DNA of 64,000 bases, from NCBI GenBank assembly GCA_044892525.1, contig CM097886.1:168132312-168196311 (forward strand), read 5' to 3'. Of the stretch, positions 5,690 through 63,078 are shown one piece after another. The notes under the pieces are model-generated. The model made no database searches. It was not told the origin of the DNA and saw only the letters and a program-made list of their open reading frames with translations. This DNA is from Schmidtea polychroa (lineage: Eukaryota). Position 1 is the stretch's first letter, and each line of letters starts with the position of its first letter. The position numbers and the translations under genes are program-made.

Positions 5690-5790
5690 TCCACTCAATA
5701 TATTTCACGATATATTTCGACAGTTTTCCTGTGATCGTCAGGCTGGAGAGAATAACTATAGAAACTATAGATTTTACGAACAATTAATTA
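5690..5790 (-). mobile_element. Penelope family-1 3' UTR fragment carrying a hammerhead copy
   Basis: ttcacgatatatttcgacagttttcctgtgatcgtcagg matches the 3' UTR of the copies at 29.3 and 36.7 kb. Confidence 0.7.
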
Positions 5791-9700: not shown

Positions 9701-10119
9701 AACTTTACGAAAATTTCAAAATCCCAAAAATAGAAAATTGTTGTTGTACAAAATGTAAGAAAAAAATTAATTGTTTGAATACGAAAAGTGGGTTATTGAA
9801 AATTAGATAATTAAATCTAAGCATTAAAACAAAAGAGATTGCATTATTGAAAATTGCTAATGTAAAAATTTGTAAATTTTTTTTTAACAATCGAAAATAT
9901 GAACAGAAAAATGTCTCAAGTGATTTGTTTTAATAGTGAAATTTGATATTAATTAATTAATACATTTTTAGTTGTGGTTTTGATGCGCTGTAATTTATAT
10001 TTTAATTTTTTTCTAATTTGAAATTGTAGAATAATAAATAAAATTAAAATAAAAATAAAATAACATTTATATTAATATTAATAATAATAATAATTAGTTA
10101 TTAATAATAATATTATTAT

Positions 10120-10930
10120 AAGAAAGTATCACTCAAACATTCGTTTTACGATATATTTCGATAGTTTTCCTGGCATCATCAGGTAGGATATAATAACTAT
10201 AGAAATTATAGAATTTTGAACAAATATATGATTTAATATTAATTATATTCAACTTTTAATAAAAATATTTTTATTCTTTAAAAATGTTAAAAGTATAATT
10301 TAAATAATAAATAATATTTTAAATTGTGGCATTTAGAAAAATATTTTAAAACAACAACAATACATATATTTATATGTACATTTAAAAACATTTAAAACAC
10401 ACATATTTTGCACGTTAATTTTTGGATTAAATGACTAATATCAATAACGCTTCACAAATTACACCTGTACAATAACTATTGAAATTTCATTAATAAAATT
10501 TTAAAATCAGGCATACCTATTTGTCTCTTACAGCCCTTATTGTGCTCAATAAAATTGGTTTATAATGACTTTGGTTTATAATGTTCTTGAGCTAGAATAT
10601 AGAGATGACGGGAAGTTTCTCCAATGTATGTGACATTACACTCATCACATGTAAATTGATTAACGAGATCAGAACACAATCCAACCGGAGTTTTGGTTGC
10701 TTTACATGAACTTGACTCTATCTTATAGTTTGAATTCCCGACTGCTTGTTTATCTTAAATTTATAATCTGTAAAACTCTCTGAGTACGCCAATACCAACA
10801 CAAATTTAGGCTCATCATTATTACACACGCTAATTAATTAACAGAATCATACTCAGATTGTCTCAAAGGTGCATTATTAGGATTTTTAATAAATTTATCA
10901 ACAGTTTCGTTTACCATAGTTAAAAAAGAG
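10120..10930 (-). mobile_element. Older degraded Penelope family-1 copy (GIY-YIG region + 3' UTR)
   Basis: Alignable by eye to 36632-37560 (ttacagcccttattgtgctc, gataaacgagatc, aaatttaggctcatca). Hammerhead at 10147-10185. Confidence 0.75.
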
Positions 10931-13324
10931 GATTTTTATAATATTAAAAAGCCATTAAAGATAAGAATGGGGCAATTTTTCAAAAGTGTGAAATCAGCAA
11001 GTAAAGCGTATGAAGAAATAAGAAAAAATGAAATTGTAAAAATATTTATTTTTGTAGAAAGATCTGAGATATATTATTAAAGGAGTTTGAGTATGACATA
11101 AGAAAGGTAAAAATGTTATTATCTACAATGGAGATTTTTCGAAGTTTTTGTGGGGTATTTTAAATATTTCATATGGATGCAGTCCTTCTTGTCAATGGTT
11201 TGAAATGGTTGCTTTATAGGATTTGGTGATTACCCGGGTAAGATCAAACAAAAATAATTACTTTATTTCTTATTCCTATATGAAAAGGAATCAAAGATCA
11301 AGTCTTATCAAATTGCAACGATAATGCTCTCAGTATATATGACTTAACGAAGTTCATTTTGAGTAAGAAAAAGGAGGCAATTTCTTGCGAAAGATATTAT
11401 TGAAAACTAAGTCACTAATTTCCCGTTATATATACTACTCAAATAGATTATAACAAAGGCTGAAATCTCTACGCGTACTTATAATACTTGGTTTAATACT
11501 TTTATATACCAATGAAGTCACAATTTAGTCACAACTTTTCCAAGTATTTTGACAAATTCAAATTCTAAATCATTCCCCTTAGGTGATTCATGAATCAGGT
11601 CTTTCGCAAATATGCCTCAAATCCTTTCCATTATATACATTTTACAAGCATTGTAATAACTACATACTATTTTTATGACCAGGATTAACTGGAGAAGCAT
11701 TACATAAAATTCTACCTTTTCTATGAGCCAAGGTTCATGCTATAAAATTTAACATAGATTCTGGTTTTACATTTTCTATTATTTTTCATCCAAAGTTCAA
11801 GACCAAACATTTCCATATTCTTTATTTTCCGTTATTATTAATACATATCATATTAATATGAAATTTCTCTGATATAAGATGTCTATTTGAAGGGTTGCCA
11901 GAACTCCAAAATCACAGATTGGGATATCTGATAACCGATAACAGCATCTCATGATATGATACAGTGTGCCTGAGAAACGACTCTAGTTTCTTTTCTTCTG
12001 AGATATATTACCTTGTTTATAGGGTTACAGTTTATTATGTTCAATCAAATTGGATGATAGGTAAAATGTTGGTTGATGCTTTATTACTAACATTTGTTCA
12101 CTTTATTACTTGCCATATTATTGTACATGAGTTCAGGAATATCTAGATACTAGTAATTTGTATATAAGTTCATATTGAGCTGAAGTATGGTCGTAAAGCA
12201 AGATACCTTGGTCAAAACAAATGCCCATTGAGGCTGACATTGACACCTTTTACATCCTCCCTCTAATGTCTGACCCAGCCACTGTTTGTCTCCACATGAT
12301 AAATTAGTTTTTCTAATTATGATTTTTGTTCAGATACAATGCAAGACATTTGTCTGTTGAACTCGTGTCAGTCCCGCTAAGTCTTGCTTTTTATCTATAA
12401 AATCCTATTTGAATTTCTCTAATTTGTCTTTATTTTGTATAACTTTGCTGTATATCTTTGCTATATTAACGAATATATTCTAATTATGAAAAGGTTATTT
12501 GAGACCCTTACAATCATACCATATAATATGATACACACATTAAATTATTCATGTTAATTATTAATTTAATTAATTAAATTAACAAATAATACTATGAACA
12601 ATTTAACTTGAAAAATGTGATTCTTTAATTAATGAGTTATTTAATTTTTATAATTAATTATTTAATTTAAAAATCACAAAATTAATTAAATTATAATAAA
12701 AGAATTTAAAATACTGGCTACTCATTTTCCTAATTCATTATTTTTATTTATTAAAGAAGCATAATTATCTAATTTAAAACCAATTAAAACAAAAATTTAA
12801 TATCAATTGATTAATTAAAACAAAATGAAATATGAACACTTAATTAATTATCGAAAGAAATAATAACTAAAATTTAATATTTTCTGCTTTATCAAAATAT
12901 AGAATATTAATTTTTAATAAATTTATTTCTTATGAGTCACTTTTGTCGTGGGTTCACAAAGGTGCCACATTTATTGAATCTTCAAGAAACATATTCTTCT
13001 TTCAGTTCTTTCCAATATTTCTCAACCCTTCTGTATACAAAGAGTTTAACACGAAAAGAGTCTTCAGATTTGCACCTTTTCGCTGTGAAATAGTAGGGCA
13101 GTTTTCCAAAATGCATCTGCTATCAATTAAATCGCCTTAATCTGTAAAAACTCGATATCTTTAATTCAATGAGCCCTATTGTAACTTTTACTTTGAAAGA
13201 TAGGAATTAAGAAAAGGATTATCTTTATTTTCTACATCAGTTTGAGGCTTACAAATTCTTGATGAACTAAATTCAATACCTTTTATTAATTTTTTATAAA
13301 ATATTTATTTTAAAATCACATATA

Positions 13325-14294: not shown

Positions 14295-14324
14295 TACATA
14301 TTTTTCTCATACAGCCCTTATTGT

Positions 14325-14990
14325 GTTCACTAATATTAGTCAAATTCTAAGGAGCTATGTTTGAGAATTGCCCAGTGTAATTTGATTGGTGTAGATGGAT
14401 TGGATAGTGAGTTAAATTAATTAAATAACGAGTGTTAGGATAATAAGTCTAAATTCGTTAAAATCCGTACTCAGAAGGTTTTACTGATTATAAAAGAAAG
14501 ATAAGCAAGCAGTTAGAAATTTAAACTATAGTTGTGTCTAATTCATGTAAAGTACGCAATATGTTTGTTAATAAGACTAAAACTCCTTTTGGATTGTGTT
14601 CTGATCTCGTTTATCAATTTACATGTAATGAGTGTAATGACACAAACATTGAAGAGATATCGTGAAAATTACAAACCGACGGTATTGTTGTTGTTTTAAA
14701 TGTTTTAAATTTTTAAATTAAATAAATTTTAAATTTCAATTTTTTAAAAGTTTATAGAATGTTAAAATTAAAAATAAAATTAAAAAAAAAATCTTTTCAT
14801 ATATTTGTTACAAATTAAAGATGTATTATTTAAATAATATTTTTAAAAATATTTTTTATCAAATTGGATATTATCAATAAATTTGTTCATAAAATCTATA
14901 ATTTCTTTAGTTATTCTATTCTACCTGACGATGACAGGGAAACTGGTGAAATATAGCGTAAAACGAATGTTCGAGTGGCGCTTTCTTATA
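14325..14990 (+). mobile_element. Older degraded Penelope family-1 copy
   Basis: tactcagaaggtttt...gatctcgtttatcaatttacatgtaat matches the GIY-YIG region. 3' UTR hammerhead at 14922-14960, then (aat)n. A short inverted piece lies at about 14330. Confidence 0.75.
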
Positions 14991-17650
14991 ATAATAATAA
15001 TAAATATTATTATAAAAACTTCTTTTCATTTTCACCTCTAATTTCTTTTCAGTTGATATTATATTTATTAAAAATAGTTGACTATGAATCAGTAAAGATA
15101 TCAATGTTTTTTGTTAATTTCATATTAATAACTAATATAAAGGCTGGAAAATAATGGTGTTTTGTGCTGCAAATTTGTTTAGTACTAAATCTGAATCTAA
15201 AATAAATTCAAATTTCTCTGACATTGGTACATTTGTTTAACTTTTACTTAAATAAATAATAGCTGCAAAAGTATTTACAATGGCCATGGAGTGTTAGTCC
15301 GCAGGTTTGTGTCACCAATGTGATCTTGACCCCTTGCACCTTATGCGGATATGTAAGGCATTTATTTGGATTATTTTATGTTATTTATTAATTTTATACA
15401 CTGAAAAATGGTCACTTTTGTGTCGTTGCCGTTTGTTAGATTTTTCTCTNNNNNNNNNNNNNNNNNNNNNNNNNNNNNNNNNNNNNNNNNNNNNNNNNNN
15501 NNNNNNNNNNNNNNNNNNNNNNNNNNNNNNNNNNNNNNNNNNNNNNNNNNNNNNNNNNNNNNNNNNNNNNNNNNNNNNNNNNNNNNNNNNNNNNNNNNNN
15601 NNNNNNNNNNNNNNNNNNNNNNNNNNNNNNNNNNNNNNNNNNNNNNNNNNNNNNNNAGAATATTTGTGCGATAAAGTGAATTAATTTTTTTTATAATTTT
15701 ATAATTTTTCTTTTATTCCCAAACTATAAATCATGTCAATTTTATATATCCAGAGAAAATGTTGATGAAACAAGACCCGTCAAATGTCGACGTTAATGTC
15801 GACTTGACTAAAAACGCCAATTGTTCTTTTATGAGTCGTAATTTAAATATTTGACAAGTGAAATTCTAAAAGATCTGAGAATTCCTCGGGCAAATGGAAC
15901 AATAAATTTTTCAGAGTCGACTAAATATCAGATTTTTGTTTGAATCGATTGAGTGAAATGTTTTTTCGTTGTTTAAGATTTTGCAACTTTTTATTTGTCT
16001 CTGTCTATATCTGAATAAATTGAGATAAAAATAAGGAAATTAATTATAATTAGTCGACATGTTCAACTCGTATATTTGGGGTGGGGGAGATTAAATAGAA
16101 AAAATAAGAAAGAATAATTCAATTAAAATGAATTGAAAATTTGACCAACAAATCTTTCTTATTATCTAATTACTTTTCCCAGTAATTGGGACCGGGGAAA
16201 ATTTATTTTTCTAATATTTTAGCACATTCAACCCAATATAAAAAATTTAAATGACACTAAATTGACTCAAAAATCATGAAATTNNNNNNNNNNNNNNNNN
16301 NNNNNNNNNNNNNNNNNNNNNNNNNNNNNNNNNNNNNNNNNNNNNNNNNNNNNNNNNNNNNNNNNNNNNNNNNNNNNNNNNNNNNNNNNNNNNNNNNNNN
16401 NNNNNNNNNNNNNNNNNNNNNNNNNNNNNNNNNNNNNNNNNNNNNNNNNNNNNNNNNNNNNNNNNNNNNNNNNNNNNNNNNNNNNNNNNNNNNNNNNNNN
16501 NNNNNNNNNNNNNNNNNNNNNNNNNNNNNNNNNNNNNNNNNNNNNNNNNNNNNNNNNNNNNNNNNNNNNNNCAATAAATATTGGAATTGACAAAACGCTT
16601 CAGACAATCAATTTTTTCATTTTTAACTGTGATCTGTGAAAATTTAAAAATAAAATATTAAAAATAAAATATTAAAAATAAATAATTCAATTTTAGTTTA
16701 AGAAATGATACAAATGTTATTAATTAATTTTTTTCATGCTGTTCTCATTTATTATTAATTGATTCATATCTAAAATTGAANNNNNNNNNNNNNNNNNNNN
16801 NNNNNNNNNNNNNNNNNNNNNNNNNNNNNNNNNNNNNNNNNNNNNNNNNNNNNNNNNNNNNNNNNNNNNNNNNNNNNNNNNNNNNNNNNNNNNNNNNNNN
16901 NNNNNNNNNNNNNNNNNNNNNNNNNNNNNNNNNNNNNNNNNNNNNNNNNNNNNNNCTTTTTACTTAATTCGCTATATTTAAATGTTTACCCTCCTAATCT
17001 GGAAATTTGACCCCCTTGAAATGTTATTTTCCAGTAAAATCACAAACGACTTAATCAGGATGAATTCCGATGCCAAAACACTTACAATTAACTAAGCTGC
17101 CATCGTTTTTTCCATTTTGCTGAAAACGATATTTTTACTGATTCGAAAACAAAATGTATAAAATAATTGAAAAGGCTTCATTTCCTCAAATTAATAATAA
17201 GAAAATTGAATTTTTGGAAAATCTTCCAGATTTTTTCCCTAGAATTCTTCCAAAATTTATAGAAATTTAATTGGGCATTGTTCTCAATTTAGTTAATTAA
17301 ATTGTTGCCTCGGTTTCATAACAATTTCTGCAAGCATTTAGTTCATATTTGAAATTTATGGATAAACAGTTCTTCAGAAAGCGCAAGGAAGTGATTGCAA
17401 AAAAATTTCTTCAAGAACTTTCTTCCATAGAAAATAGAAAACATATTTTAAATCTGATTAAATATAAAAAATTTATTTATTAAATTATTTTTCTATTTAA
17501 TGTAAATATTTTTTTTGCATTTTCAAGGAATAATTTTTCCTCTTCAAAGAATTTATTTAAATTATATTAAAATATTTTCGGATATATTTATGCAAATAGT
17601 GTTTTCAATTTCTCATATGAGTTTTTTTACTCTGGATAAATATTAAATTT

Positions 17651-23094: not shown

Positions 23095-23742
23095 AAACAG
23101 ACAGCCAAAAATCAACACTAAAGAAGAAATCAATGAAATCAAGAATTTGATCTGTTGTCATTGACCTTGAGAATAACTGACAATATATAAAAAATATAAT
23201 AAATTAAAAAGTAATAATTAAAATAATATAGAAGATTTTAGGAAATATACTTTCAAAAAATAGGATTTAAAAATCAAAATTGACACATTTATTGAAATAT
23301 TTATATAGCGTATATAAATAGTTATTGGAGGCTTTATTTTAAAATATTTTGAAATATTTTATTAAGTTCTAGAAGCTAATTATAGAAGCTTTATAAAAAA
23401 ATTTAAAAATTTTTAGTTTGTGTCATTTTCGAATTTTAAATGGTATTTATTTTATTTTTAATTTTAATTTTCAATAAAATTTTAAAAATTTTTAATAAAA
23501 AAATAAAAAAATTCATAAAAAGAAAGTATATATTATATTTAGAACCAATGAGAATTAAGAAAAAGGAAATAAAAGAAAGATAGAAATGTATTTTTGAGAA
23601 GAAGATTGCTAAATTACAGGAGATTGACAAGGACTATCTTATAGTCGAACATTTTTTCATTAGATACATTATTTGCAGCAAAAGGCTTAAATTATCACTT
23701 TATTGTTTTAAATAATAAATGCTGCTACCAAGAAAGCATCAC

Positions 23743-26949: not shown

Positions 26950-27899
26950 CACCCGTTTGCGAAATATAACATAGCCTATAATTAAAAAAAAATCAATAAA
27001 TATATATTATAGGAACACACAAACTTACCTGCGTGTAAAATTTTAATGCTGCGAAAGCTAACATATTTATTATAGGAATCTAAAAAGTGAGAGAAAATAA
27101 TTAAGCATACAAACACAGCACACATAACGAAAAATACATACAAAATTAATAACGTGTTTTTTTTGCGAAATTAACATTAATTAACATATAATTAACATAT
27201 TAATATTTTCAAATTATTTAAAAAGTTATGCACAAAAATACTTTTAAATCAGATTCCAACTGCTCTACCTTGAGCTTTAGAGAAAAAGAAGAAAATACAT
27301 CGTAAGATTTAATTATAAGATAATTTAGAATATAAAATTTTTTTAGATTTACAGATATTGAAGAAGGTCCTTCGACATCTTTGAATTTGCAGGAAAAAAT
27401 TCGCAAATCGTAAATTTTAATAAATTATTTTAACAAATTAATATTTTCATAGAATTACAGAAAAAGACAAAATTCGAAAGAAGATTACAAAAACTTAAAA
27501 AACTATTTTATCCATTCTTTCCTAAATGTCTTAAAAAAATAAATGTTTGGTGAATACTTTATTTATTCATAATTATAAAAATATCTAACTTACATTTTTA
27601 AGAAATAAATCCAAATAAAATACCATAAAATTTCTAAAAACACCTGAAATTTAATTATCAATATGTTATATTATAAATGATGACTAACAGTAATATTTAA
27701 GAACTTGAATAATGATCTCATAATTATATAAAATCAAAAGTCCTAAAAATTACTTTAATTCAAAAACTTACCTTAAAACGATTTTTGAAAAATTGAATAA
27801 ATGAAATTAAGTTAACATTGTCATATAATTGATGACTCACCTCAACTGGTGTGCACACCAACGTATATTATAGACAATGTTAACTTTCGCAAACGGGTG
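26950..27899. mobile_element. TA-flanked non-autonomous DNA transposon, TIR CACCCGTTTGCGAAA
   Basis: ta|cacccgtttgcgaaatataacat ... atgttaactttcgcaaacgggtg|ta. Confidence 0.85.
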
Positions 27900-29261: not shown

Positions 29262-30090
29262 ATTTGGTAATGATTTAACTATAAGATAACGCCAATCAAA
29301 CATTTTTTTCACGATATATTTCGACAGTTTTCCTGTCATCATCAGGTGGGATATAAAACTATACAAATTAAGGATTTTAAACAAATTTATTAATTATATA
29401 TAAAAAAAATTTTATTTAATAAAAACATTTAATTATTTTTAAAACATTATAATAAAATTAATATATTATTTTTTAAAATTTTAGCATTCAAATTTTAATT
29501 TAATAATTTAAAAATTTTATTAATTATTTAATTTAATACAACAATCAATACATACAATATACAAAAAAATTATTTAAAAACATTCAAAACACAAGTATTT
29601 ACTGCATTCTGCACATTAATTTTCGGATTCAATGACTTTATCAACAACGCCTCACCAATCACACGTTCTCAATAATTATCGAAATTTTTTAATAAAATTT
29701 TAAAATCAGACATACCTATTTTAATCTTACAGCCCTTATTGTATACTCACCAATATGAGTCAAAGCCTTCGGTCTACTTTCCATGAAGTTGGCACTATCC
29801 TATAGTTTAAATTTCCTAACTGCTTTCTTATCTTCACTTTATAATCCTTAAAACCTTCTGAGTACGACAATACTAACACAAATTTAGACTCATCATCCTT
29901 GCACACACTATTTAATTTATTTAATTCATCAGGCTCACACACCTCAACAACATCACACCCAGATTTTCTCAAACATGGATCCTTAGGATTTTTAATAACC
30001 GTTCTTCATTAACAATTTAACCAATTTATCAACACTTTTTACTGAATTTTTAAAAGTAGAAGACAAAGACCATGCACAATAAAAATTTTA
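29262..30090 (-). mobile_element. Penelope family-1, inverted internally deleted copy
   Basis: Reverse complement of the 3' half of the element (KFVLVLSYSEGFKDYKVKIRKQLG...), with hammerhead at 29310-29348. Confidence 0.88.
29310..29348 (-). ncRNA. Minimal type-I hammerhead ribozyme (identical to 31232-31270)
   Basis: Exact reverse complement of the 31232-31270 motif. Confidence 0.8.
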
Positions 30091-30099
30091 AATTAATTA

Positions 30100-31315
30100 A
30101 AAATAAGCAAATTGATGAAGAGCTGTTTAAATCTATTCGCCCAATGGGATCACAACCAGCAAAAAATGTATGGACTTCCAAAAATCCATAAAGATGGCGT
30201 GCCTATGAGACCTGTTTTATCCATGATTGGCACTGCCCAGTATAAAATAGCCAAATTTTTGGATGGATTATTGAAACTATTAATACGATCAGAATTTGAA
30301 TGTAAAGATAGTTTTGAATTTGTTTCCTGAATTCCACAATATGATAGACAAAGTATGGATGAAATTATGGTTTCGTTTGATGTTTGTAGTCTGTTTACAA
30401 ATGTACCATTGGTTGAAACAATTGAATTATGTTGCTTGTTATGGAATGAAAATATTTCTGAACATCATATTTTGGACGGAAGAGCATTTCGTGAACTTCT
30501 TGTATTTGCTACTTCAAAAATCAATTTTCTTTTCAATAATGAATGGTATCAACAAATAGATGGAGTTGCTATGGGTTCAGAAGGTTTGAAGGATTATAAA
30601 GTGAAGATAAGAAAGCAGTTAGGAAATTTAAACTATAGGATAGTGCCAACTTCATGGAAAGTACGCAATATGTTTATTAATAAGTCAAAAACTCCAATCG
30701 AATTGTGTTCCGATCTCGTTTATCAGTTTACATGTAATGGGTGTAATGCCACATACATTTGAGAGACTTCTTGTCATCTCTGTATTCGAGCTCGAGAACA
30801 TTGTAGACCGAAGGTTTTGACCCATATTGGTGAGCACAATAAGGGCTGTAAGATTAAAATAGGTATGTCTGATTTTAAAATTTTATTAAAAAATTTCGAT
30901 AATTATTGAGAACGTGTGATTGGTGAGGCGTTGTTGATAAAGTCATTGAATCCGAAAATTAATGTGCAGAATGCAGTAAATACTTGTGTTTTGAATGTTT
31001 TTAAATAATTTTTTTGTATATTGTATGTATTGATTGTTGTATTAAATTAAATAATTAATAAAATTTTTAAATTTTTAAATTAAAATTTGAATGCTAAAAT
31101 TTTAAAAAATAATATATTAATTTAATTATAATGTTTTAAAAATAATTAAATGTTTTTATTAAATAAAATTTTTTTTTATATATAATTAATAAATTTGTTT
31201 AAAATCCTTAATTTGTATAATTTTTATATCCCACCTGATGATGACAGGAAAACTGTCGAAATATATCGTGAAAAGAATGTTTGATTGGCGTTATCCTATA
31301 ATTTTATTTAATGTT
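30100..31315 (+). mobile_element. Penelope family-1 copy (RT N-half fused to GIY-YIG by internal deletion)
   Basis: MYGLPKIHKDGVPMRPVLS, VSFDVCSLFTNVP, QQIDGVAMGS|EGLKDY, LVYQFTCNGCNATYI*ETS. Hammerhead at 31232-31270. Confidence 0.9.
31232..31270 (+). ncRNA. Minimal type-I hammerhead ribozyme (Penelope pLTR type)
   Basis: CAC-CUGAUGA-U-GACAG[GAAAA]CUGUC-GAAA-UAUA-UC^-GUG: intact core, 5-bp stem II, palindromic stem III, 3-bp stem I. Confidence 0.8.
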
Positions 31316-32264: not shown

Positions 32265-32700
32265 TAAAGTGATGATTACTTGGTAGCTGCATTAATTAAA
32301 TTTAAAAACAACTAAACGATAATTTAAGCCTTTTGCTGCGAATAATTTATTTACGACAAATGAAAACATTATCGACTATAAGATAGCTCTTGTCAATTTC
32401 ATGAAGTTTAGCTTCTTCTATTTTCTAAAATACTCTTTGATCTTCTCTTTTATTTTTTTTTTCTTATATCTCATTGGTCAAAAATTATAATAAACTTTTT
32501 TTTTGAAAAATTTAAAATTCTAAAAAATTTTTTTAATAAATATCCTTTAAATTTCAAAATGACTCACTAAGAAAAATTTTTAAATTTTTAAAGCTCCTTT
32601 AATTAGCTTATAGAAACCTATTTTAATAAATACTATCTTAAAATATTTATAAAATATAGTTTCCATTAATTATTTATATACGCAATTAAAATATTTTAAA
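32225..32700 (-). mobile_element. Penelope family-2 inverted 3' UTR (pLTR-like), next to a gap
   Basis: aatttaagccttttgctgcgaataat...atcgactataagatag is the reverse complement of the family-2 UTR. (AAT)n lies on the outer flank. Confidence 0.75.
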
Positions 32701-32945
32701 AAATGTTTCTATTTTGATTTTTAAATTCTAACGATCTTCTAAAATTATATTTNNNNNNNNNNNNNNNNNNNNNNNNNNNNNNNNNNNNNNNNNNNNNNNN
32801 NNNNNNNNNNNNNNNNNNNNNNNNNNNNNNNNNNNNNNNNNNNNNNNNNNNNNNNNNNNNNNNNNNNNNNNNNNNNNNNNNNNNNNNNNNNNNNNNNNNN
32901 NNNNNNNNNNNNNNNNNNNNNNNNNNNNNNNNNNNNNNNNNNNNN

Positions 32946-35529
32946 ATTACAGTGAACAAAGAATTGGTAACCGACCTCATAAATGTTTATCCAAAGGTGA
33001 AAAAGGAGTACTTTCACTAGGACCAAAGTTCAGTATAAACAGAGAAATAGATGAAGCAGCCATCCTCAATTTCAAAACAGCTCTTTGTCGCATTGCGTAC
33101 CAGATCAAATGGAACAATACAATACCTCATGAAAATGAAGATAGCGAAAACCAGCTCCCAATATACATAAACACAGATAAACGCTATCAACCAAATCCTG
33201 ATGCAGAATTAGATTCAACACTGTCAAAGGTCTGTCACAAAATCATGGAGATAGTTGAGAAGGAAAGAAGAAAACCATATCTCTCAAACCTAACGAAAGA
33301 CGAACAAGCAATATTAAAGTCCCTTAAAAAGAAACCACACGTTTACTTACCAAGTGACAAGGATGAGAATTTTGCATTATAGAGAAGAATCGTTACTGTG
33401 AAGCTGATTACGAACACCTCGGCAACATCGAAACATACAAGAAAGTCGCCGCATGTCACCAAACACCATCGAAATGAAGATCAACAAAGTATGGAAAGCC
33501 ATAGCTTTGGAAATGAAGCTCAACACCAGAATAACCAGCAGCTTCGTCACAAAAACGTCTGATTTTCCCAACTTCTACCACTTAATTAAAACTCACAAAG
33601 AGGGTCCTGGTATCAAAATTAGACTTATAGCGTCCAACAAAAATGGACCAACAACTGAAACAAGTTGGTTCCTTGCAAAGATCTTGAAACATTTATTGGA
33701 CACGATACCACACCATCTTCAAAGCAGCGACTGCCTCATGACAAGATTAAATAATAACATAACTTGTCATAGAGAATTCAAATACCCATTCAGTCTTGAT
33801 GTCGTATCACTATAAACATCTATAGAACCAAAAGAGGCTATTCAATGTTTAGAAAAGAAATTAAGAGAAAGTAACTTGTTAATAAAGGAAATGAATATCG
33901 AGAATAGCACCAAACTACTTACTGTTATCCTCGAGAACACCTATTTTACCTTTGAGCAAAATATCTATAAACAAGTTAAAGGTCTGCTTATGGGTTCTAG
34001 CATATAAGGACTGCTAGCAATCATCTTTATGGATAACTTCGAACGACAAACACTGAGGACCATACAACCCATCGGTTTCTATGAAAGATATGTAGATGAT
34101 ATCTTCATCACGACCAAAAGCAGAAAAGAAGCGGAGGAAATATTTCATACATTCAATGCGGCTCACCGAGATATTAAGTTCGAAATCGAATATCCGGAAG
34201 AAGATGGATCCCTTAATTTATTGGATTTGAGAATTAAAATAGAAGAAAATACTCCAACATACGGGTTCTACAGAAAACCAGCTCGCAAAGAAATATTTAT
34301 GCACCAAAGATCAGCGCTTCCATACTTACAGAAAGTACATGTCATAAGAAACGAGAAACGAAGAATAGCCAATCGATGCAAGGAGAAAAACGAAAACTTT
34401 AAAGAAAAATCAAATTTCAATAAAATCCTACACCGAAATGGATACCAAGGTGAAGACATTGAAAGAATGAATTCTACCCCAAGAAGATCTAGGGAATTAA
34501 CACAAAAGAATCAGAAATATTTCTATCTGAATATCCCATTCATCAGTGACATACTCGACTTCAAGATCCTGAAAGAACTAAAACGTACCGGTCTTCCAAT
34601 TCGGATAGCACATAAATCTTGGACATTGAGAAGGGCTCTGGCAGGCAACATAAATAGAGAAAACAATTGCACAATGAAAAACTGCCAGACACCGAAAGAT
34701 ATGTGCTTTAGAAAAAACATCGTTTATTGCATCACGTGCAATGTATGCAATGAAATCTACATTGGAAGTACACTCAGGACCTTGCACCAAAGAGTTAAAG
34801 AACATCTAGATCCTGGTGGAACATCCTCGTTGGGCAGACATCTCCTGCAGTGTCAGCCAACAATGGAAAGAAAAAATATTTCAAGAGAAATCCTAGCTAA
34901 TGGAAACATCCAAAAGAAAAGTGTCAGATTCAAAGAAGCAATTCTCATCATAAACAGACAGCCAAAGATCAACAATAAAGAAGAAATCAATGAAATCATA
35001 AATTTGATCTGTTGTCATTGACCTTGAGAATAACTGACAATAAATAAAGAAATTTAAAAAATATATAATAAATTAAAAAGTAATAATTAGAATAATATAA
35101 AAAATTTCAAAAAATAGGATTTGAAAATCAAAATTGACACATTTATTTATTTAAATAGCATATTTATATTTATATTTAAATAGCATATATAAGTGGTTAT
35201 TGGAGGCTTTATTTAGAATATTTTCAAATATTTTATTAGGCTTCTAGAAGCTAATTATAGAAGCTGTATAAAAAAATTTAAAAATTTTTACTTTTTGTCA
35301 TTTTGAAATTTTAAATGTAAAAATTTTAAAAGTTTTTAGTAAAACAATTCATTATATTTACAACCAATGAGAATTAAGAGAAAGGAAATAAAAGAAAGAT
35401 TGAAAGGTATTTTGGGGAAGAACATTGCTAAATTCCAGGAGATTGATAAGGACTTTCTTATAGTTGAAAATTTTTTCATTAAATACATTATTTGCAGCAA
35501 AAGGCTTAAATTATCATTTTATTGTTTTA

Positions 35530-36634: not shown

Positions 36635-36691
36635 GTTAAACATACATGGCAATGATTTAATTATAAGATAACGCCAATCAAACATTTTTTT

Positions 36692-36730
36692 CACGATTAA
36701 TTTCGACAGTTTTCCTGTCTTCATCAGGTG
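36692..36730 (-). ncRNA. Minimal type-I hammerhead ribozyme variant
   Basis: CAC-CUGAUGA-A-GACAG[GAAAA]CUGUC-GAAA-UUAA-UC^-GUG. Stem III remains a palindrome (AUUAAU). Confidence 0.78.
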
Positions 36731-36903
36731 GGATATAATACTCATTAAATAAAGGATTTTAAACAAATTTAATTATATATAAAAATTTTTTATTTTTTAA
36801 AAACTTTAACATTTAAAATTTTATTTAATAATTTAAAAATTTAAAATTTTTTTATCAATTATTTAATTTAACACAACAATCAATACATACAATACACAAA
36901 AGC

Positions 36904-37788
36904 TTATTTAAAAACACTCAACACACAAGTATTTACAGCATTCTGCACATTAATTTTTAGATTCAATGATTTTATCAACAACGCCTCACAAATCACACGT
37001 TCCCAATAATTATCGAAGTTTTTTAATAAAATTTTAAAATCAGACATACCTATTTTAATCTTACAGCCCTTATTGTGCTCACCAATATGGGTCAAAGACT
37101 TCGGTCTACAATGTTCTCGAGCTCGAATACAGAGATGACGGGAAGTCTCTCCAATGTATGTGGCATTACACCCATTACATGTAAGCTGATAAACGAGATC
37201 GGAACACAATTCAACCGGAGTCTTTGACTTATTAATAAACATATTGCGTACTTTCCATGAAGTTGACACTATCCTATAGTTTAAATTCCCTAACTGCTTT
37301 CTTATCTTCACTTTATAATCCCTAAAACCTTCTGAGTACGGCAATACTAACACAAATTTAGGCTCATCATCCTTGCTCACACTATTTAATTTATTTAACT
37401 CATCAGACTCACACACCTCAACAAAATCACACCCAGATTTTAACTCATCAGACTCACACATCTCAACAAGATCACACCCAAATTTTCTCAAACATGGATC
37501 CTTAGGATTTTTAATAAATTTGTCAACAGTCTCTTTCACCATAATTACTAAAAAGGATTTTGAATAACCATTCTTCATCAACAGTTCAACCAACACGTCA
37601 ACACTCTTTACCGAATTTTTAAAAGTAGAAGACAAAGACCATGCACGATAAATCAACCCCTTCACCATATTTCTTTTATACTTGAATTCACAAAAACTTT
37701 CAGAAGAAGTATAGAGACCAGTATCAGTTGGTTTTCTATAAATCTCTGTCTCATAGTGTTTCTCTTTGCGTTGAATTAACAAATCCAA
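36904..37788 (-). CDS. Penelope RT thumb + GIY-YIG endonuclease (open but 5'-truncated)
   Basis: LVYQLTCNGCNATYIGETSRHLCIRAREH...ERVICEALLIKSLNLKINVQ. Confidence 0.85.
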   Translation of the reverse strand: MDLLIQRKEKHYETEIYRKPTDTGLYTSSESFCEFKYKRNMVKGLIYRAWSLSSTFKNSVKSVDVLVELLMKNGYSKSFLVIMVKETVDKFIKNPKDPCLRKFGCDLVEMCESDELKSGCDFVEVCESDELNKLNSVSKDDEPKFVLVLPYSEGFRDYKVKIRKQLGNLNYRIVSTSWKVRNMFINKSKTPVELCSDLVYQLTCNGCNATYIGETSRHLCIRAREHCRPKSLTHIGEHNKGCKIKIGMSDFKILLKNFDNYWERVICEALLIKSLNLKINVQNAVNTCVLSVFK

Positions 37789-37851
37789 GAAAGCAAACGA
37801 TGATTTTTTCTCCGTTTCACATGTGAAAACAATGTTTTTATGTAGACTGTA

Positions 37852-41240: not shown

Positions 41241-41593
41241 GAATGTGAATTAAATTATAATTTTTTTGGTCTGAATTTTTTAAATTATAATTTTTTTATA
41301 CCAAATATCTAGGTATCCAAAAATGAATAATTAAAGAATCAAAATCAAGTTTTGTAGTTTTGTACATATATCCATACATATTTTGTTAATCTAATATATC
41401 ATATATTATATAGCTATTAAATTTTTATTGCAGATCTAAAAAACATTCAGTCTTAGAAAAAATATGTAAAAAATCACGTTTGTATTCACGAACACAAAAA
41501 TGGTATTTAATGTTAGTTATTTTTATTCAGAGTAGGTTTCAGATAGTAGCCGCATTCTCTTTTTCTGCGTTGGCTTAAAATCTGTTAGTACTA

Positions 41594-42488
41594 CACCAAA
41601 CACCACTGAGAACCGTTTCCTATAATATAACAAAAAAATCAATAATCTTAGATTATAGAAACATACATACTTACTTTGATTTCACGTTGATGTTCTCATT
41701 TATAGCTCAATGAGATACATCTTATATTATAGAAATCTGAAAAGTGGAAGAAAAATTAAAAACTGCATGCAAACGCAACACATACTAAAAAGCACATACA
41801 AATTTTTGATTCGTAGAAATGTAACGATGAGATACGTTTCTATAATAAACTTTATTTTAGACAATTTTTAGAAAAAAAGATAGTTGAAAATTTTTAAATT
41901 TATATTTTTAATGAAAATATCAAGAGCAGATGAATTTTGTTCAATATCTTTTCAATCCATATTTGATTTCCTGAAAGAAGCCCATCATATTGAGCTCAGA
42001 AAAAAAATTACAAAAATTAAAAAAATTATTTTAATCATCGATTTTCCCCAAAATATTTTTAAAAATACATATTTTAGGTGATTGATTTATTTAATTATAA
42101 TTAAAAATATATCGGACTCACATTTTTTCGAAATAATTTCAAAATAAATAAAGGTAAATGTTATAAAGTTTCTAAAAAACCCTGAAAATTAATTAAAAAT
42201 AATTTACAATTAAACTGTTGATTAAAAGTAATATTTAAGAACTTGAATAATGATCTCATATATCATATGGATCAGAATTCAAGTCTTAAAATTTACTTAA
42301 AATAAAAAAAATTACTTGAAAGCCATTTGTAAAATGGCTAAAATTTCCAAAATATATAAATGATGAGACATGATAAATTGATAACGATGATTTTACAATT
42401 ACAACCAATTAGAATTGGTAAATAAATTGGTGAGTGAATTTACACGCCAACCACCACTATAGAGAACGTATCTCAGTGGTGTTTGGTG
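41594..42488. mobile_element. TA-flanked MITE, TIR CACCAAACACCACTGAGA (long copy)
   Basis: ta|caccaaacaccactgaga ... tctcagtggtgtttggtg|ta. It has about 490 bp that the 6381-6789 copy lacks. Confidence 0.87.
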
Positions 42489-45187: not shown

Positions 45188-45814
45188 GCATCATGTATGT
45201 ATTCAAAAGCTACAATTTATCATGCTGTAGTTGTAATATTTCTCGAATTTTTTGCATTTGGCTTACTAACAGCTCCTATGATAACTGTTTTAGATGAAAC
45301 TTTTCCTAAACATACTTTATTAATGAACGGTTTAATTCAAGGCGTCAAAGGATTTTTATCATTTTTAAGTGCTCCATTAATTGGAGCAATGTCTGATGTT
45401 TTCGGTAGGAAACCTTTTCTACTTCTCACAGTTACTTTTACTTGCTCACCAATTCCATTGATGAAATTGAGTCATTGGTGGTATTTTACAATGATCAGTA
45501 TTTCTGGAATATTTGCTGTGACTTTCAGTGTTATTTTTGCTTACGTTGCAGATGTTACGAAAGAGGAAGAAAGGAGTTGGGCATATGGATTAGTGTCGGC
45601 TACCTTTGCAGCAAGTTTGGTTATAAGTCCGACTATTGGAGCTTATTTAGGAAAGATTTATAGTGATAATTTTGTGATAGCACTTGCAACTGCAGTCGCA
45701 TTGTTGGATATTTTCTTTATTTTGGCGTGTGTGCCTGAATCTCTACCGGAGTCTTGTAGAGTTGTATCGAGTAGTGGTAAAAAAATTTCCTGGGAAAAAG
45801 CAGATCCATTTGGG
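45188..45814 (+). CDS. HIAT1: HIAT1/MFSD14-like, exon 2
   Basis: YHAVVVIFLEFFAFGLL...LMNGLIQGVKGFLSFLSAPLIGAMSDVFGRK...ISWEKADPFG. ag/gt boundaries at 45187 and 45815. Confidence 0.95.
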
Positions 45815-46279
45815 GTAATTTTATAGTTCTCATTATTTTTAATATAATAATTATAATCCAAATAAAAATAATTATTAACTATTACAACTAAATTCTCTAT
45901 TTGATGTTGATTTGTACGATATAAATTCTCGTGTTGCTGTATGCATTTCCCGGCTGTGTTTGTGTGTATGATAATAATATCGAATACTGGATTCTGATTG
46001 GGTGCACACTCAATTATATAGTATATATATAGTATAATAGTATACTATCAGCTGACTTTTTGTTATTGCAACCTAATAAGAAACCTTTTGTTCTTATTGA
46101 CTATTAGCAAAAATAAAATGCCAATTAATTGCTATTAAATTAGTTAGAAAGTTATTTCATTGGTTAATCATTGAAATGTCGCATAAAAGATTTAATAATT
46201 TTTATGGGATGTTTTCTCGTGGAATTACAGTTCGGATTGTTTTGACGATCATTTATTGATATTTGGTTTTAAATAAGGA

Positions 46280-47830
46280 TTTTTTTTGTGACGGGGGGTT
46301 CTGGCCTCCATTGTGATAACATTGGTTTGGGAATGTAAAGTTAGCTAGCAATCTGGTAATTTGTGGTTGGAATTAATTATTATTTCCATATGCAAATGTT
46401 TATCCGGTTTGAGGATGTTTGTGAATTTTTTTTGGGTCGATATTACGTAATTGGCGGGCGCTATTCAATGATTGATTTTTCAGTAGATTTGTGACTATTG
46501 CTGATGATATTATTTCAAACTATAGTATATTTGATGATATTTTATAATGATGATGTGGAACTTAAATAAGAATCCGCGATATATACCTAAAGTACGCCCC
46601 AGGTTCCAATGGGGGTTCCTTCCCCCAATTGGTCCCTGTTTATTAGGAATGCATATTTTGATAGGAAACTGATTGAAATTGACTGTTATTTCCATTCGCA
46701 AATGTTTATTTGACTTGCGATTAATCGATAGTATTTTTGGGGATCACTATCGCGTGATTGGAGGATGCTAACCAATTATTGACACGTAACTGGTTTGGGG
46801 ATATTTTCATGCTATTACTTTCTATTTACATTCTATCTGATGATTTTTTTTAATAATAATGTGAAAATTGAATCAAAATAAGCAATTTGTTATGAAAGTA
46901 CGCCCAAGTTCCAGAGGGGCTTTCCTTCCCCCAATTGGTCCCTGTTTATTAGGAATGCATATTTTGATAGGAAACTGATTGAAATTGACTGTTATTTCCA
47001 TTCGCAAATGTTTATTTGACTTGCGATTAATCGATAGTATTTTTGGGGATCACTATCGTGTGATTGGAGGATGCTAACCAATTATTGACACGTAACTGGT
47101 TTGGGAATATTTTCATGCTATTACTTTCTATTTACATTCTATCTGATGATTTTTTTAATAATAATGTGAAAATTGAATGAAAAAAGAAATTTGTTATGAA
47201 AGTACGCCCAAGTTCCAGAGGGGCTTTCCTTCCCTGAATCGGTCCCTGTTTATTAGGATTGCATATTTCGATAGAAAAATGATTGAAATTGACTATTACA
47301 TCCATTCGCAAATGTTTATTTGACTTGTGATTATCTTAGAGTATTTTTTGGGATTACTATCACGTGATTGGCGGACACTATGATTTATTTTTTAGTGGCT
47401 TAATGATACTATTACTTTCCTTTGAAACTAAATTTTGTTTGCTTTTATTATAAACATTTGAAAATGAAAGCCAAATAAGCAATTTGTTATGAAAGTACGT
47501 CCCCAGGTACCAAGGGGTTTCTGCCCCAGATCCCCGTTATTTAGGAATGTAGACATAGGTGAAAATAGTGTAATGTGATTGAAATTGACTAATATCTACC
47601 ACTTCGTTCAAATGCATCAGCATTTTGTGAAGTTTAAAAACCGATATCACGTGATTGGCTTACGCTATCCAATGAGTTGCCTTTTAGCAGTGTAGGGGCT
47701 ATCAATGATGTCATTACTTTCTAGTGAAATTATAAAAATTGAAAATGAAATCCAAATAAGTAATTTATTGTGAAAGTACGTCCTAGGTTCCAGGGGATGT
47801 TAACCTTCCCTTCCTTAATCTCCGCTATCC
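46280..47830 (+). repeat. Tandem array of ~300-bp units (about 5-6 copies) in intron 2
   Basis: aaagtacgccc(a)agttcca..gggg recurs at about 46589, 46897, 47200, 47493 and 47774. The central units are nearly identical. Confidence 0.9.
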
Positions 47831-49091
47831 GATGGTATTCATTTCGTTTTATTAACATCTACTAAAAACCTTCCATTTCACACAATATATACAAAAATAA
47901 ACCTCTGTTTATGAGTGCAAACTAGAAACATTCATTCCATATTTTTATCTGTTGTTTCTTGTTTGAAACAATAATTTTTGTTTCACAAATTCACTTCACG
48001 TACAACACATTTAAAACAGAATAATTCTGTTACACAAAGTCTACGTGGTTATATTTATTTACATAGAACCTTTGTGATTTCAAACTTGTTTTTGTTTGTT
48101 TGCCTTGTAGATTTGTGTAGAATTGATATATTGAAAAACTCAATAGAATCCCATTAATTAAATGCCCGTTTAAAATTAGATAAATTCCCAAACTCGAATT
48201 AAATGTTACTAAAATTATAAGACTTAAAATAAATTATCCATTATTCAATAGAGAAAAAAATCAATAAAAATGTTATATTATTGATGAAAAATAACTTATT
48301 TTTAAAAGTATTTGAATTAAATTAAATTAATTTCATATTTGATTCGATAGAAAATTGATTATATAAAAATGCAGTCGATCAAAATTAAAAATTAATATAA
48401 AATTTAAAAAATCAATTAAATAATAACTAATGAAATAATAATAGAAATAATGCGAAAATTGGATGTTATATTAGGTTATAAGTTACAAATATTTCATTGC
48501 TCTAATTTCACATGCAAGAGTACAAATCGTGACAAATAATAAATTTAGTTTCCCCCGACAAACGGAAGTCAGACAAAATATTAAAAGTAGATTACACATT
48601 CATATAATTGATATTCCATAATATTTTTTATAGTTTCAATAAATTTTGTTATGCGAATTTAAATTTTTAAAAGAAATACCGAAACTGTATAAATTCTGAT
48701 TGTCATTCAATAGGAAAATAATCAATTTTCCAAATTACACTTTTATCGATTAAAATTAAAAGTTATTATAAATATTTAAATCAATTACAATAATTATACA
48801 ATAATGGGATGAATTTTGGAGGGAGGCAATTATTTCATACAAATCTTGCTGAGCCAAAATTAAATTATTAATAGTTTAAATTTGAAAATTGCACTTTTTT
48901 CGAAAATTTTAATAATAATTAAAATGAATAAATAAAGACCACCCGATTTTCAGATAAAATTACAATTAAAATCACCGGTTGTCGATTAAGTTTTATTTGG
49001 AAATATATTTGAATTGAAATTAAATTGATTTTATTATGATTCGATTAAAAACTGATTTTCAGATACACATACACATATATATTAAAAAGAG

Positions 49092-49238
49092 CTTGAAGAC
49101 TATAAATCAGTAATATATCGATGTTTGTTGATACTCACGAATTTTCGGCACTGCCTTTTTCAAGTGAATAAAAAGGCAGTGCCGAAAATTCGTGAGTATC
49201 AACAAACATCGATATATTACTGATTTATAGTCTTCAAG
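49092..49238. repeat. Perfect inverted repeat, 69-bp arms with a 9-nt loop
   Basis: 49092-49160 is the exact reverse complement of 49170-49238. Loop: caagtgaat. Confidence 0.97.
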
Positions 49239-49716
49239 TTCTCTTTTTAGTAAATTCAATGGAAAAAATAATCAGTGGTGAAATTGGAAAAAAAGTTCTT
49301 ATAATATATATCAATGTATTTATACTATTATAATATATTAAACGACTGCATCTTTTCTCTTTTTTTGGTTCTCTTTCCATCACATTATAATCCATCATAT
49401 TATAATATGTTTATAATTCGTAGGAAAACATTACCACACAAAGCAAGCTGACTATAAAAAATCATGCATTAAATGTTTAGGGTAAAATCAAATTTAATCC
49501 AAAAGTATAATGAAAAATCGGGCACATTTTAGTACATTTAAACTGTCCATGAACCATTATAATAATACAGAATTTATTAAATCTATATAATTGCGAAATT
49601 TGACTAAAGTTCAAAAGTTAAAAAAAATAAGTCGCAAGTTTTTTTATAATAATTAAAATGGTCATCATCATCTAATAGAGGAAGCTAGATTTTCAGATAA
49701 ATTTGCAATAAAAATA

Positions 49717-50090
49717 ACCGGTTATCGATTAGAATTAAAAGTTATTGTAAAATTTAAAATAAGTTATATATTTGAATTGAAATTGAATCGATTTTATTAT
49801 GATTCGATAGAAAATTAATTTTTTATCAATATAAATATCAATATAAATATAGGTATTTATGCTATTATAATATCTTACAAGACTTCATGCATTCTGTTAT
49901 ATCTTTGCAATTGTTCTCTTTCCATCACATAGGCAATTTTCACGGTTTATAATTATTATCACACACAGCAAGTTGACTATAACAAATCACACATTAAATG
50001 GTTAGGGTAAAAATAAATTTAAATCAAAAAATATGATGCAAGATACGGCACAGTTTATTACGTGTTTAATCGGTCACAACCGTTATAATA
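49717..50090 (+). repeat. Intronic block duplicated at about 52507-52952, with more degenerate copies at about 48975-49560
   Basis: accggttatcgattagaattaaaagttattg... and cacacagcaagttgact...gtttaatcggtcacaaccg recur. Confidence 0.8.
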
Positions 50091-50241
50091 ATACAGAATT
50101 TATAAAATCTTTACAATGCACAGTCTGACACAAAGTTCAAATGATGGCGTGACAGTTAATTAAAACAACTCTTGCATTGGTTCTTCATTATGTGTTTTTA
50201 TTCATCAAAATAAAGTTTCGCTAAATCCAGTTTATTTACAG

Positions 50242-50355
50242 GCACTTCGTCGGATTGGTAATGATTACTTGATTCTCATTCTTTGCATAGCCACCTTTCT
50301 TTCATTTCTACCTGAAGCTGGACAATATTCATGTTTTTTCGTCTATCTCAGACTG
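50242..50355 (+). CDS. HIAT1: HIAT1/MFSD14-like, exon 3
   Basis: ttacag|ALRRIGNDYLILILCIATFLSFLPEAGQYSCFFVYLRL|gtaatt. Confidence 0.93.
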
Positions 50356-50415
50356 GTAATTTTTCGTGACATTTGGTTCTCAAATAACATTTCTCCTATT
50401 CTTTCTTTTCATTAG

Positions 50416-50868
50416 GTTCTTGAATTTTCTGAAGAACATGTTGCATTGTTTATTGGATTTATTGGAATATTTTCCTGTTTGGCACAAACAATTCTACTTG
50501 ATATTCTAATGAAATATGCCGGGCCTAAGAATACGATAATCTTTGGATTGGGGTTTGAAATGATCCAATTGACGATTTTCGGATTCGCCAATCTTCGCTG
50601 GATGATTTGGCTAGGTGGTGGTATCGCTAGCCTCGGTTCGATAACTTACCCGGCGATTAGTGCATTTGTATCGAAACATGCCGATACCGATCAACAAGGC
50701 GTAGCACAAGGGGTTTTAACTGGTATTAGGGGCCTATGCAACGGACTCGGTCCTGCGATGTTTGGTTTTACGTTTTACTTGTTCCAAGTGGATTTATCTG
50801 GACAGCAGCCTTCAGATGATATCATGAAGAACAAAAACCTCAGCAGTCACGAGGTGTTTAGATCTCAG
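50416..50868 (+). CDS. HIAT1: HIAT1/MFSD14-like, exon 4
   Basis: attag|VLEFSEEHVALFIG...DQQGVAQGVLTGIRGLCNGLGPAMFG...RSQ|gttatt. An alternative donor at gag|gtg (50853) is possible. Confidence 0.9.
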
Positions 50869-51129
50869 GTTATTATTTTATATTTATTATATAGCTAATT
50901 AAATGATTTTTATTCATAAATTCAAACGTAACTTACATATCAGTAAAATCGATTTATTTATTGACCCTTTTCGATTTATTTAGATTTTCGATCAGTATTT
51001 TGTTCTATATTTAACACAAATTTCCCGCATTGCCTTTTTAACATTTGAATCCATATAATGACCGAATCCTAAATTAGTAAAAAGAAATAAAATATTGTTT
51101 AGTTTATTTTTATCATAATTGGAATTATT

Positions 51130-51460
51130 TTTATTGATTTAATAATATTTCATTTATATCGATTTAATAATAGTTTATTTATATTGATTTAATAATATTT
51201 CATTTATATTGATTTAATAATAATTCATTTATATTGATTTAATAATAATTCATTTATATTGATTTAATAATAATTCATTTATATCGATTTAATAATAGTT
51301 TATTTATATTGATTTAATAATATTTCATTTATATCGATTTAATAATATTTCATTTATATTGATTTAATTATAATTCATTTCTATTTTATATTTTTTAACA
51401 TCGATTTTTAATGATTATCGATTTAATAATATTTTATTTATATTGATTTAGTTATAATTC
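51130..51460 (+). repeat. ~25-bp AT-rich minisatellite
   Basis: atat(t/c)gatttaataataattcattt repeated about 10 times. Confidence 0.85.
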
Positions 51461-52713
51461 ATTTATTTCTATTTTATATTTTTTAACATTTGAATTTATA
51501 TTCACTGTAACTTCTTTTGTAACTTCACTGTCTGAACTATGAATCAGTAAATATATCGATGTTTTTGATATTCACGAATTTTCGGTACTGCCCTTTTCAA
51601 GTGAATTTGATCTGTCTTTATTGAGATCTTGAAATGGAATGAAAATCTGCCTAAAATCGGTGTCATCAATTAGCAACAACTAAATTTTGAATTGATGTCA
51701 CAATATTGCTATCTGGTTACATTAATTGTGACTTGTAGGAGGAACCTGTAACCTGTAACTTGCATTTGATTACCTTGTCACGAAACAGCGCGTCATATAT
51801 GTATATTGGTTTGATTTCTTATTTAATCTTATCCCTATACTCATAAATAACTTACAAGTGATTCTCGCTTTCTATCATACAATTGGGATTTTTGAATTGA
51901 AGTAACGCACAATTCATCCAACGATATCCTTTCTGTGTTTTCCACCCTTTATATTTCCCTGACATTGATTTACATTACTTGTCTACGACCTTAGCCAGTT
52001 CATTCAAGTCTTCTAGTTGACTTAATGTCAGCGTTACCATGAAATATAAGACAAAATATTGATGTATGGTGTGAAAAGAAATGAAGATTAATATATCCTA
52101 TGAAATTAGGAAATTGTTGGTTAATAATGGCACATTAGGAAATGTATGAACCTGTGAAAGAATTTCGATAATTGAGTGTAACAATTGATCTTTTCAAAAT
52201 AAAGCATTTATTTAGGAAGCAAAAATCAATTTTTCCCATTTTTGTTATATAAATTGTCAATAAATTCCCCATTGAAAAATCGATTCCAACGCTAATTGAA
52301 AAATTTTCCAATGTGTAAACTATCGAATAAACTGATTGATTTTTTGATCTGATTTGTGCAAATCCAAAAATAGGTACAAAGTACAAAGCGATATTGCAAG
52401 CAGATCAGTGTTTACTATCATTCTCCAGTTGTCTCGTAAAGGTTTCTGTTAGAAATTCATTTAATTCTGCAATGTGTTTACTGACATTGTTGGCTGTAAT
52501 TTTTTGTTATTGTTGATGCGAATCATTTAGGGCTCTAGTGCCCAAACTTTCCTGGATTTTTATTCACCGGTTATCGATTAGAATTAAAAGTTATTGTAAA
52601 ATTTAAAATAAGTTATATATTTGAATTGAAATTGAATTGATTTTATTATGATTCGATAGAAAATTGATTTTCAGATAATATTAATATAAAAATGCCATGT
52701 TGTCGATTAAAAT

Positions 52714-52754
<41 letters not shown>

Positions 52755-54308: not shown

Positions 54309-54780
54309 TGCAATACAAATACATGATTAACAAAGACATTTCTAATACAAATACATGATTAACAAATATATGTAACAAATATATGATTGACAAAGACATG
54401 TGCAATACAAATGCATGATTAATAAAGATTTTTGTAATACAAATACATGATTAACAAAGATCTGTGCAATACAAATACATGATTAACAAAAACATTTGTA
54501 ATACAAACACATGATTAAAAAAGGCATTTGTAATATATGATTAACAAAGACATGTGCAATACGAATGCATGATTAACAAAGACTATGTGTATTACAAATA
54601 CATGCTTAACAAATATATATGCAATAAAAATACACGATTAACAAAGACATGTGCAATTCAAATACATGATAAACAAAGACATGTGCAATACAAATACATG
54701 ATTAACAAAGACATGTGTAATACAAATATATGATTAACAACGACATTTGTAATAAAAATACACGATTAACAAAGACATAC
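54309..54780 (+). repeat. ~32-bp minisatellite (about 14-15 copies)
   Basis: tgtgcaatacaaatacatgattaacaaagaca with variants. Confidence 0.9.
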
Positions 54781-62829: not shown

Positions 62830-63078
62830 TAGGAAGTTGTACTTTGTTAGGAAATCTGCTCCTATTATTGCTTGTTGAACGTCAGCTATTGTGAATGTCC
62901 ACTTGTAATTTTTTTTTGTTTATATTCAGATTTAGTGTTTGTTGTTCGAATGTTTTGATGCTTGTTCCGTTGGCTGCTGTTAACGGTTTATCTGCGGTTT
63001 TTGTATTTTTATACATGTAATGTGGCAGTAGTGAGATCAATGAACCGGTGTCTATTAGAAAATCAGTGTTATTTGTGT

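Follow-up and report, generated by a model that had tools for sequence, protein, structure and literature searches.

Terminal minimal hammerhead motifs in truncated copies of a Penelope-like element family of Schmidtea polychroa

The 64,000-nt stretch of Schmidtea polychroa DNA analysed here (contig CM097886.1; in the following the window) carries six dispersed hammerhead motifs. With high probability they derive from a single endonuclease (EN)-bearing Penelope-like element (PLE) family, six truncated copies of which each end in one of these minimal hammerheads. The window copies would now be inert passengers; in full-length units the two motifs in tandem likely pair via their palindromes, and the element's RNA would be cut where the open reading frame (ORF) begins. 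The motif is linked to an ORF for reverse transcriptase (RT) and a GIY-YIG endonuclease, occurs in a tandem layout, is conserved and covaries. A preliminary description of the window had related the motifs to the minimal hammerheads of PLEs. Their identity as hammerheads of PLE pseudo-LTRs (pLTRs) is supported by the conservation and by the covariation between subfamilies.

Six motifs in remnants of one element family

All six motifs reside at the coordinates and on the strands given in the preliminary description, but core and stem II are intact in only three of them:

31232..31270, + strand: intact minimal type-I hammerhead with a 3-bp stem I, CUGAUGA, an extra U, a 5-bp stem II, GAAA, the palindrome AUAUAU and AUC
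29310..29348, - strand: intact minimal hammerhead, identical in sequence to that at 31232, with C17 at 29313 and a tail of ~68 nt
36692..36730, - strand: intact minimal hammerhead; the palindrome is AUUAAU, the extra base A, and C17 is at 36695; tail terminating in an (ATT)n tract
10147..10185, - strand: decayed hammerhead, UAC/GUA subfamily; stem II with two non-pairs, core preserved
14922..14960, + strand: decayed hammerhead, UAC/GUA subfamily; a non-pair in stem II, G at 16.1, U at 11.1
5706..5745, - strand: decayed hammerhead; C at 10.1, an additional base in stem I

In the 31232 copy C17 is located at 31267 and the cut is predicted after this position, in agreement with the site named beforehand. 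The 36692 copy differs from the 29310 and 31232 copies in the extra base and in the palindrome. Both the stem I change (CAC/GUG versus UAC/GUA) and the two palindromes (AUAUAU versus AUUAAU) are present as described earlier. The extra base between 9 and 10.1 is found in 6/6 window copies, the G10.1-C11.1 pair in 4/6 and a palindromic 15.1-16.1 region in 5/6. The exception in the latter case is the 14922 copy, which owing to the G at 16.1 has neither the palindrome nor the UH triplet. An ungapped scan allowing up to 13 mismatches yielded no seventh copy of this motif family in the window.

The G+C content of the window is 27%. The motifs might be mere chance look-alikes, given an AT-rich genome. 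In favour of this explanation, the comparison with Rfam that had been named as a check gave nine matches in the window (E up to 5) with no hammerhead among them, and the folding z-scores of 59-60-nt pieces are weak for five of the six motifs. However, a strict core descriptor which matches four of the six window motifs had no match in any of 100 window shuffles, and the motif pattern has 1,797 matches in the whole genome compared with none for the reversed control. Together with the covariation described below this refutes chance, which retains a practically negligible probability. The six window motifs are far above chance.

The PLE copies carrying the motifs are as follows, together with a start codon of relevance below:

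29277..31303, both strands: head-to-head PLE insertion, one event, bearing the 29310 and 31232 motifs
29280-30083, - strand: inverted 5'-truncated arm of this insertion, in three pieces
30089-30578 and 30577-31302, + strand: internally deleted arm of the same insertion
36660..37850, - strand: young 5'-truncated PLE copy with 97.5% identity to a near-full-length genomic copy
10092..10936, - strand: older truncated PLE copy with the 10147 motif, 75-80% to the young family
14295..15015, mixed strands: older rearranged PLE remnant with the 14922 motif, 76-84% to the young family
31277..31279, + strand: AUG, 9 nt 3' of the predicted cut, which in full-length units opens an 844-aa ORF

Five of the six motifs are found directly 3' of endonuclease-coding remnants of the single PLE family. 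The sixth, the 5706 copy, lies within a 90-nt stub of the PLE end (5703-5792, 77%). The two arms of the head-to-head insertion show 97% identity over 503 nt. The young copy at 36660..37850 consists of the 3' part of the RT and the end of the endonuclease ORF with a stop at 36904, and the remnant at 14295..15015 is composed of two plus-strand pieces (14408-14657 and 14832-15015) and one minus-strand piece (14295-14344). Past the motif of the 31232 copy the tail alone remains, comprising about 35-45 nt of the ORF start as judged by eye; the automatic tail end of +74 extends into the AT-rich flank. None of the six motifs has a same-strand tandem partner in the window. Thus a dimer in cis is possible only in full-length units elsewhere.

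The dispersed, short motifs, two of them near-identical, might alternatively represent non-autonomous retrozyme monomers or a set of regulatory ribozymes exapted by the host. A preprint (10.64898/2026.07.22.740005) derives, in the text available, animal retrozymes from PLE pLTRs, and the non-LTR retrozymes treated there share with our motifs a type-I hammerhead that is PLE-pLTR-derived or related. They are, however, non-coding tandem repeats with one motif per unit, whereas each window motif stands alone at the end of a coding element. Each window motif lies within PLE 3'-end sequence whose 5' truncation point differs from copy to copy, tandem repeats over any of the six motifs are absent, and half of the motifs are decayed. 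This alternative is largely refuted by the linkage to the ORF and we regard it as very improbable.

Three further decayed hammerhead remnants with a U3-A8 core (23624-23657 and 35443-35476 on the + strand, 32361-32397 on the - strand) are absent from the list of the preliminary description. We assign them to another PLE family, which has left pieces of its ORF at 32732-35021 (+). The motif pattern of this second family has 2,219 genome matches and none in the control. The U3-A8 core variant already appears in the accessible text of PMC4209133.

The window additionally contains features unrelated in kind. An open frame of 907 aa at 469-3192 (+) matches DNA_pol_B_2 (E 4e-31) and resembles a Polinton/Maverick polymerase. 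A gene of the major facilitator superfamily has its exons at 45188-55862 (+), the first long exon matching MFS_1 with E 6e-19. The pol of an LTR retrotransposon at 60407-62919 (-) comprises RT, RNase H and an integrase zinc domain. Hairpins at 42232-42293 and 27694-27749 match Rfam mir-753, a planarian family, with 59.1 and 38.5 bits, which is below the threshold of 62; their presence in two copies suggests a small inverted-repeat element. Finally, a 360-nt repeat with 93% identity at 6379-6792 and 41592-41951 has inverted ends (6378-6411 and 6759-6792) and is like a small DNA transposon.

Full-length units and the genome-wide family

A full-length unit consists of hammerhead, 844-aa RT and GIY-YIG ORF, and hammerhead, the two motifs being spaced by 2,771 nt. 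Same-strand motif pairs 2,701-2,771 nt apart are present in 5 of 15 loci (L204-L206, L203 and L055) that were chosen for containing the PLE 5' part. The open 844-aa ORF is enclosed in three of these tandem loci, L204, L205 and L206, which differ from one another at 1-5 positions in 2,806 nt, indicating recent movement of the family. Endonuclease ends searched for without centring on the motif have a motif with at most 8 mismatches within 700 nt in 50 of 59 cases.

The ORF of a 708-aa copy matches RVT_1 above the cut-off (E 1e-9), while its GIY-YIG match (E 0.0049) stays below the Pfam cut-off with 17.6 vs 22.6 bits. By eye, the residues DKG, YVDD, YIGET and CCHH are seen, which we take to be the RT and endonuclease signatures of an EN+ PLE ORF. 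In a protein search with the ORF, 3,092 of 7,992 scored relatives reached E up to 1e-20, and the 120 homologues listed include no named reference PLE. A PDB sequence search gave 0 matches. The RT-EN linker has no conserved cysteines in 16 aligned homologues, which, by the linker alone, fits Penelope/Poseidon. Moreover the family exhibits traits of EN+ PLEs, namely 5' truncation, partial tandems, an inverted copy and an optional tail of 30-40 nt. The tandem, inverted and tail layout of PLEs is covered in the accessible text of PMC8557442, where the role of the hammerhead is still called unclear.

An array outside the window (G000:C1:50681630-50719869, loci L244 and L245) comprises at least 19 units at a spacing of ~2.1 kb, and every unit has a PLE end stub of 330 nt. 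It was considered as a retrozyme and rejected, since the PLE stub is a passenger and the palindrome is broken in the two units examined. A pattern for other stem II openings (10.2 not A) gave 23 matches vs 10 in the control; only two of the matches are related to the family, and the matches were regarded as mostly chance.

Minimal hammerheads (min-HHR) in the pLTRs of metazoan PLEs, including Cercyon of Schistosoma mansoni and Penelope of Drosophila virilis, are known from PMC4209133, whose accessible text also reports weak cleavage of dimers. The motifs described here share with them the type-I core CUGANGA...GAAA...UH (present in 4/6 window copies and in all four subfamily majorities introduced below), the unpaired base between 9 and 10.1, the G10.1-C11.1 pair, the palindromic loop 3 and the pLTR position. 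Further common features are few tandem pairs ~3 kb apart, pairs on opposite strands, mostly single copies, thousands per genome, and consensus families with covariation. Differences concern the stems and the loop. Stem II has 7-8 bp and stem I 4-5 bp in S. mansoni but 5 bp and 2-3 bp here, and the palindrome insert is 4 nt here as opposed to 2 nt in D. virilis (PMC4209133, in the accessible text). Earlier publications on PLEs cover each of the following features: an additional base 3' of A9, a palindrome in loop 3, placement in the pLTR, pairs in inverted orientation, a tail of 30 nt and a motif that overlaps the beginning of the ORF. By title, no published description of this PLE family and no translation test of a PLE was found; the supplements of PMC4209133 may hold similar flatworm motifs. 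The arrangement is already described in other animals: the PLE family is new, the kind of motif known.

Conservation and covariation across subfamilies

Pattern and DNA searches yielded four subfamilies, namely A (CAC/GUG), B (UAC/GUA), C with ~70% DNA identity to A, and D with about 50-65% protein identity. Majority sequences were built for A, B, C and D on 72, 6, 34 and 18 copies, respectively, each at most 8 mismatches from the seed. The four majorities agree in 22 of 39 motif columns including all 13 core bases, an identity of the core that is partly built in for C and D, which were first found with core-demanding patterns. In the flanks merely 3 of 30 columns upstream and 5 of 30 downstream are common to all four, the divergence being inflated by a comparison without gaps. 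Apart from paired sites, the positions that vary are N7, the extra base, loop II and H17, which is C or A.

Changes at paired sites are in part compensatory. The pair 10.3-11.3 turns from C-G to U-A in subfamily C, while in subfamily D the pair 10.4-11.4 turns from A-U to U-G and the middle pair of stem I from A-U to G-C. In 36 distinct rows 88.1% of the paired cells are able to pair vs 78.3% after shuffling, and the covariation score is 0.316 vs 0.146, with 0/500 shuffles as high. One of five measures, the number of pairs with a two-sided change (5), is not above the shuffles (210/500). On the tree the compensatory changes amount to about four events. The stem I covariation put forward earlier for the window holds genome-wide: a 5' UAC is partnered by A in 20 of 30 cases, by G in 9 and by U in 1, and CAC by G in 45 of 46 and never by A. 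The third pair of stem I is unpaired in subfamilies C and D (20 of 36 distinct rows), leaving a stem I of 2 bp. By eye, one or the other palindrome was recognised in 94 of 100 listed genome matches, 42 being of one kind and 52 of the other, and the loop is palindromic in the majorities of all four subfamilies, even after a two-base change.

As judged from these alignments, what the active PLE lineages have conserved in the motif is an RNA structure. The earlier claim of selection across subfamilies thus stands as far as conservation and covariation are concerned, but selection acted on the mobile master lineages and not on the six stubs of the window, half of which are decayed. Since motif and ORF share a reading frame, coding may contribute to the constraint.

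Start codons, folding and putative cleavage

According to the preliminary description, the ORF track does not show the motif. As a qualification, the motif does not lie outside the ORF: it overlaps the ORF start in frame. An in-frame AUG formed at A9-x-G10.1 is present in 82/83 A/B copies and 17/17 C copies but in 0/9 D copies. A second AUG follows the predicted cut at offset 9 in 69/83 A/B and 10/17 C copies and at offset 3 in 6/9 D copies, where the codon differs from that of A/B/C. Hence every subfamily has an in-frame AUG 3-9 nt past the predicted cut, including D without the core AUG, a single lineage whose start codon was read from tails only. In subfamily A the post-cut AUG by itself opens 844 codons. 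The N-termini of the homologues do not discriminate between the core AUG and the post-cut AUG.

This overlap raises the question whether the motif is kept mainly as N-terminal codons of the ORF, or as a promoter or protein-binding site, the ribozyme activity being vestigial. The near-constant core AUG of A, B and C would fit. The ORF of the Anolis carolinensis Poseidon element PAc likewise begins at stem II, cleavage being dispensable in vitro (PMC11167929, accessible text), and Naiad PLEs spread without canonical hammerheads according to the part of PMC8557442 available. However, C3-U4-G5 is kept although it is located upstream of any AUG, and subfamily D keeps the fold with the core AUG in 0/9 copies. 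Moreover, amino-acid-changing substitutions in stem II are paired with a complementary change on the opposite strand, whereas loop II varies freely. We consider retention mainly for coding or binding unlikely.

In folding predictions the monomer hammerhead fold has -0.6 kcal/mol vs -5.6 kcal/mol with stem III open, i.e. it lies 5 kcal/mol above the open form. The double-hammerhead fold reaches -14.0 kcal/mol vs -1.2 kcal/mol for two monomer folds. It is not the ground state, as two monomer minimum-energy folds sum to -15.6 kcal/mol and the cofold minimum is -19.0 kcal/mol. Based on these energies, any cleavage would likely be slow and involve a dimer, perhaps with help from protein.

A hammerhead acting as a monomer aided by the element's own protein, instead of an RNA dimer, is rather unlikely. 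In its favour, the anole PLE hammerhead cleaved only with added protein (PMC11167929, accessible text). Furthermore, same-strand pairs are rare: by eye, none within 5 kb occurs among the first 100 listed genome matches, as against 10 divergent pairs. Against it stand the unfavourable monomer fold and the palindromic loop in all four majorities, which a monomer would not need.

In the preferred dimer model the two motifs of a full-length tandem unit would form a double-hammerhead fold through their palindromes and cleave after the AUH triplet, slowly or with the assistance of protein. The sequence 3' of each 3' motif is the ORF start, and the tails end at +36-44 in 15 of 55 copies and at +62-84 in 34 of 55. 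Reverse transcription may accordingly be pictured as beginning about 37 or about 68 nt beyond the cut site with uncut RNA as template, and such a start would explain why every inserted copy includes the whole motif and a tail. The 5' repeats of tandem units extend 109-1,665 nt upstream of the cut. As the inserted DNA spans the cut site, the template would be RNA that was either uncut or rejoined. One circular molecule as the only template was also considered and is unsupported, because the 5' repeat is not consistently nearest to its own 3' copy: that of L206 is, but that of L205 is nearer to L206 (5 vs 1 mismatches in 1,635).

PAc offers the closest parallel in the accessible text of PMC11167929, where two starts of reverse transcription make the tail, ribozyme mutants are without effect on insertion in vitro and no reads end at the cut site. 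In both elements the ORF begins at stem II and the cut follows some 26-27 nt later, the tails have two end points spaced by about 30 nt, and the target DNA is AT-rich and of the ATT type. In our family the tails end ~37 and ~68 nt beyond the cut, which is nearer than the 111-118 nt from the start codon in PAc. Unlike PAc as described there, our family has a second in-frame AUG after the cut, the sole AUG in subfamily D.

The hammerhead could therefore be imagined as a translation switch: cut, uncapped RNA with its first AUG 3-9 nt in would be the RT-endonuclease message and uncut RNA the template. We rate this idea as improbable at present. In the accessible text of PMC13725137, type-I hammerheads in the 5' UTRs of chrysoviruses and fusariviruses promote translation, and they share the position of the cut a few bases upstream of a start codon, at a distance of 7 nt in one fusarivirus and of 3-9 nt in our family. 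For these RNA viruses the evidence comes from cleavage in vivo and from reporters, for the PLE from sequence.

Taken together, S. polychroa is one more animal genome among those with PLE minimal hammerheads. The family supplies very young tandem units with open ORFs for testing both dimer cleavage and a role in translation, and its natural variants, namely the two palindromes and the lineage without core AUG, are useful for such tests.
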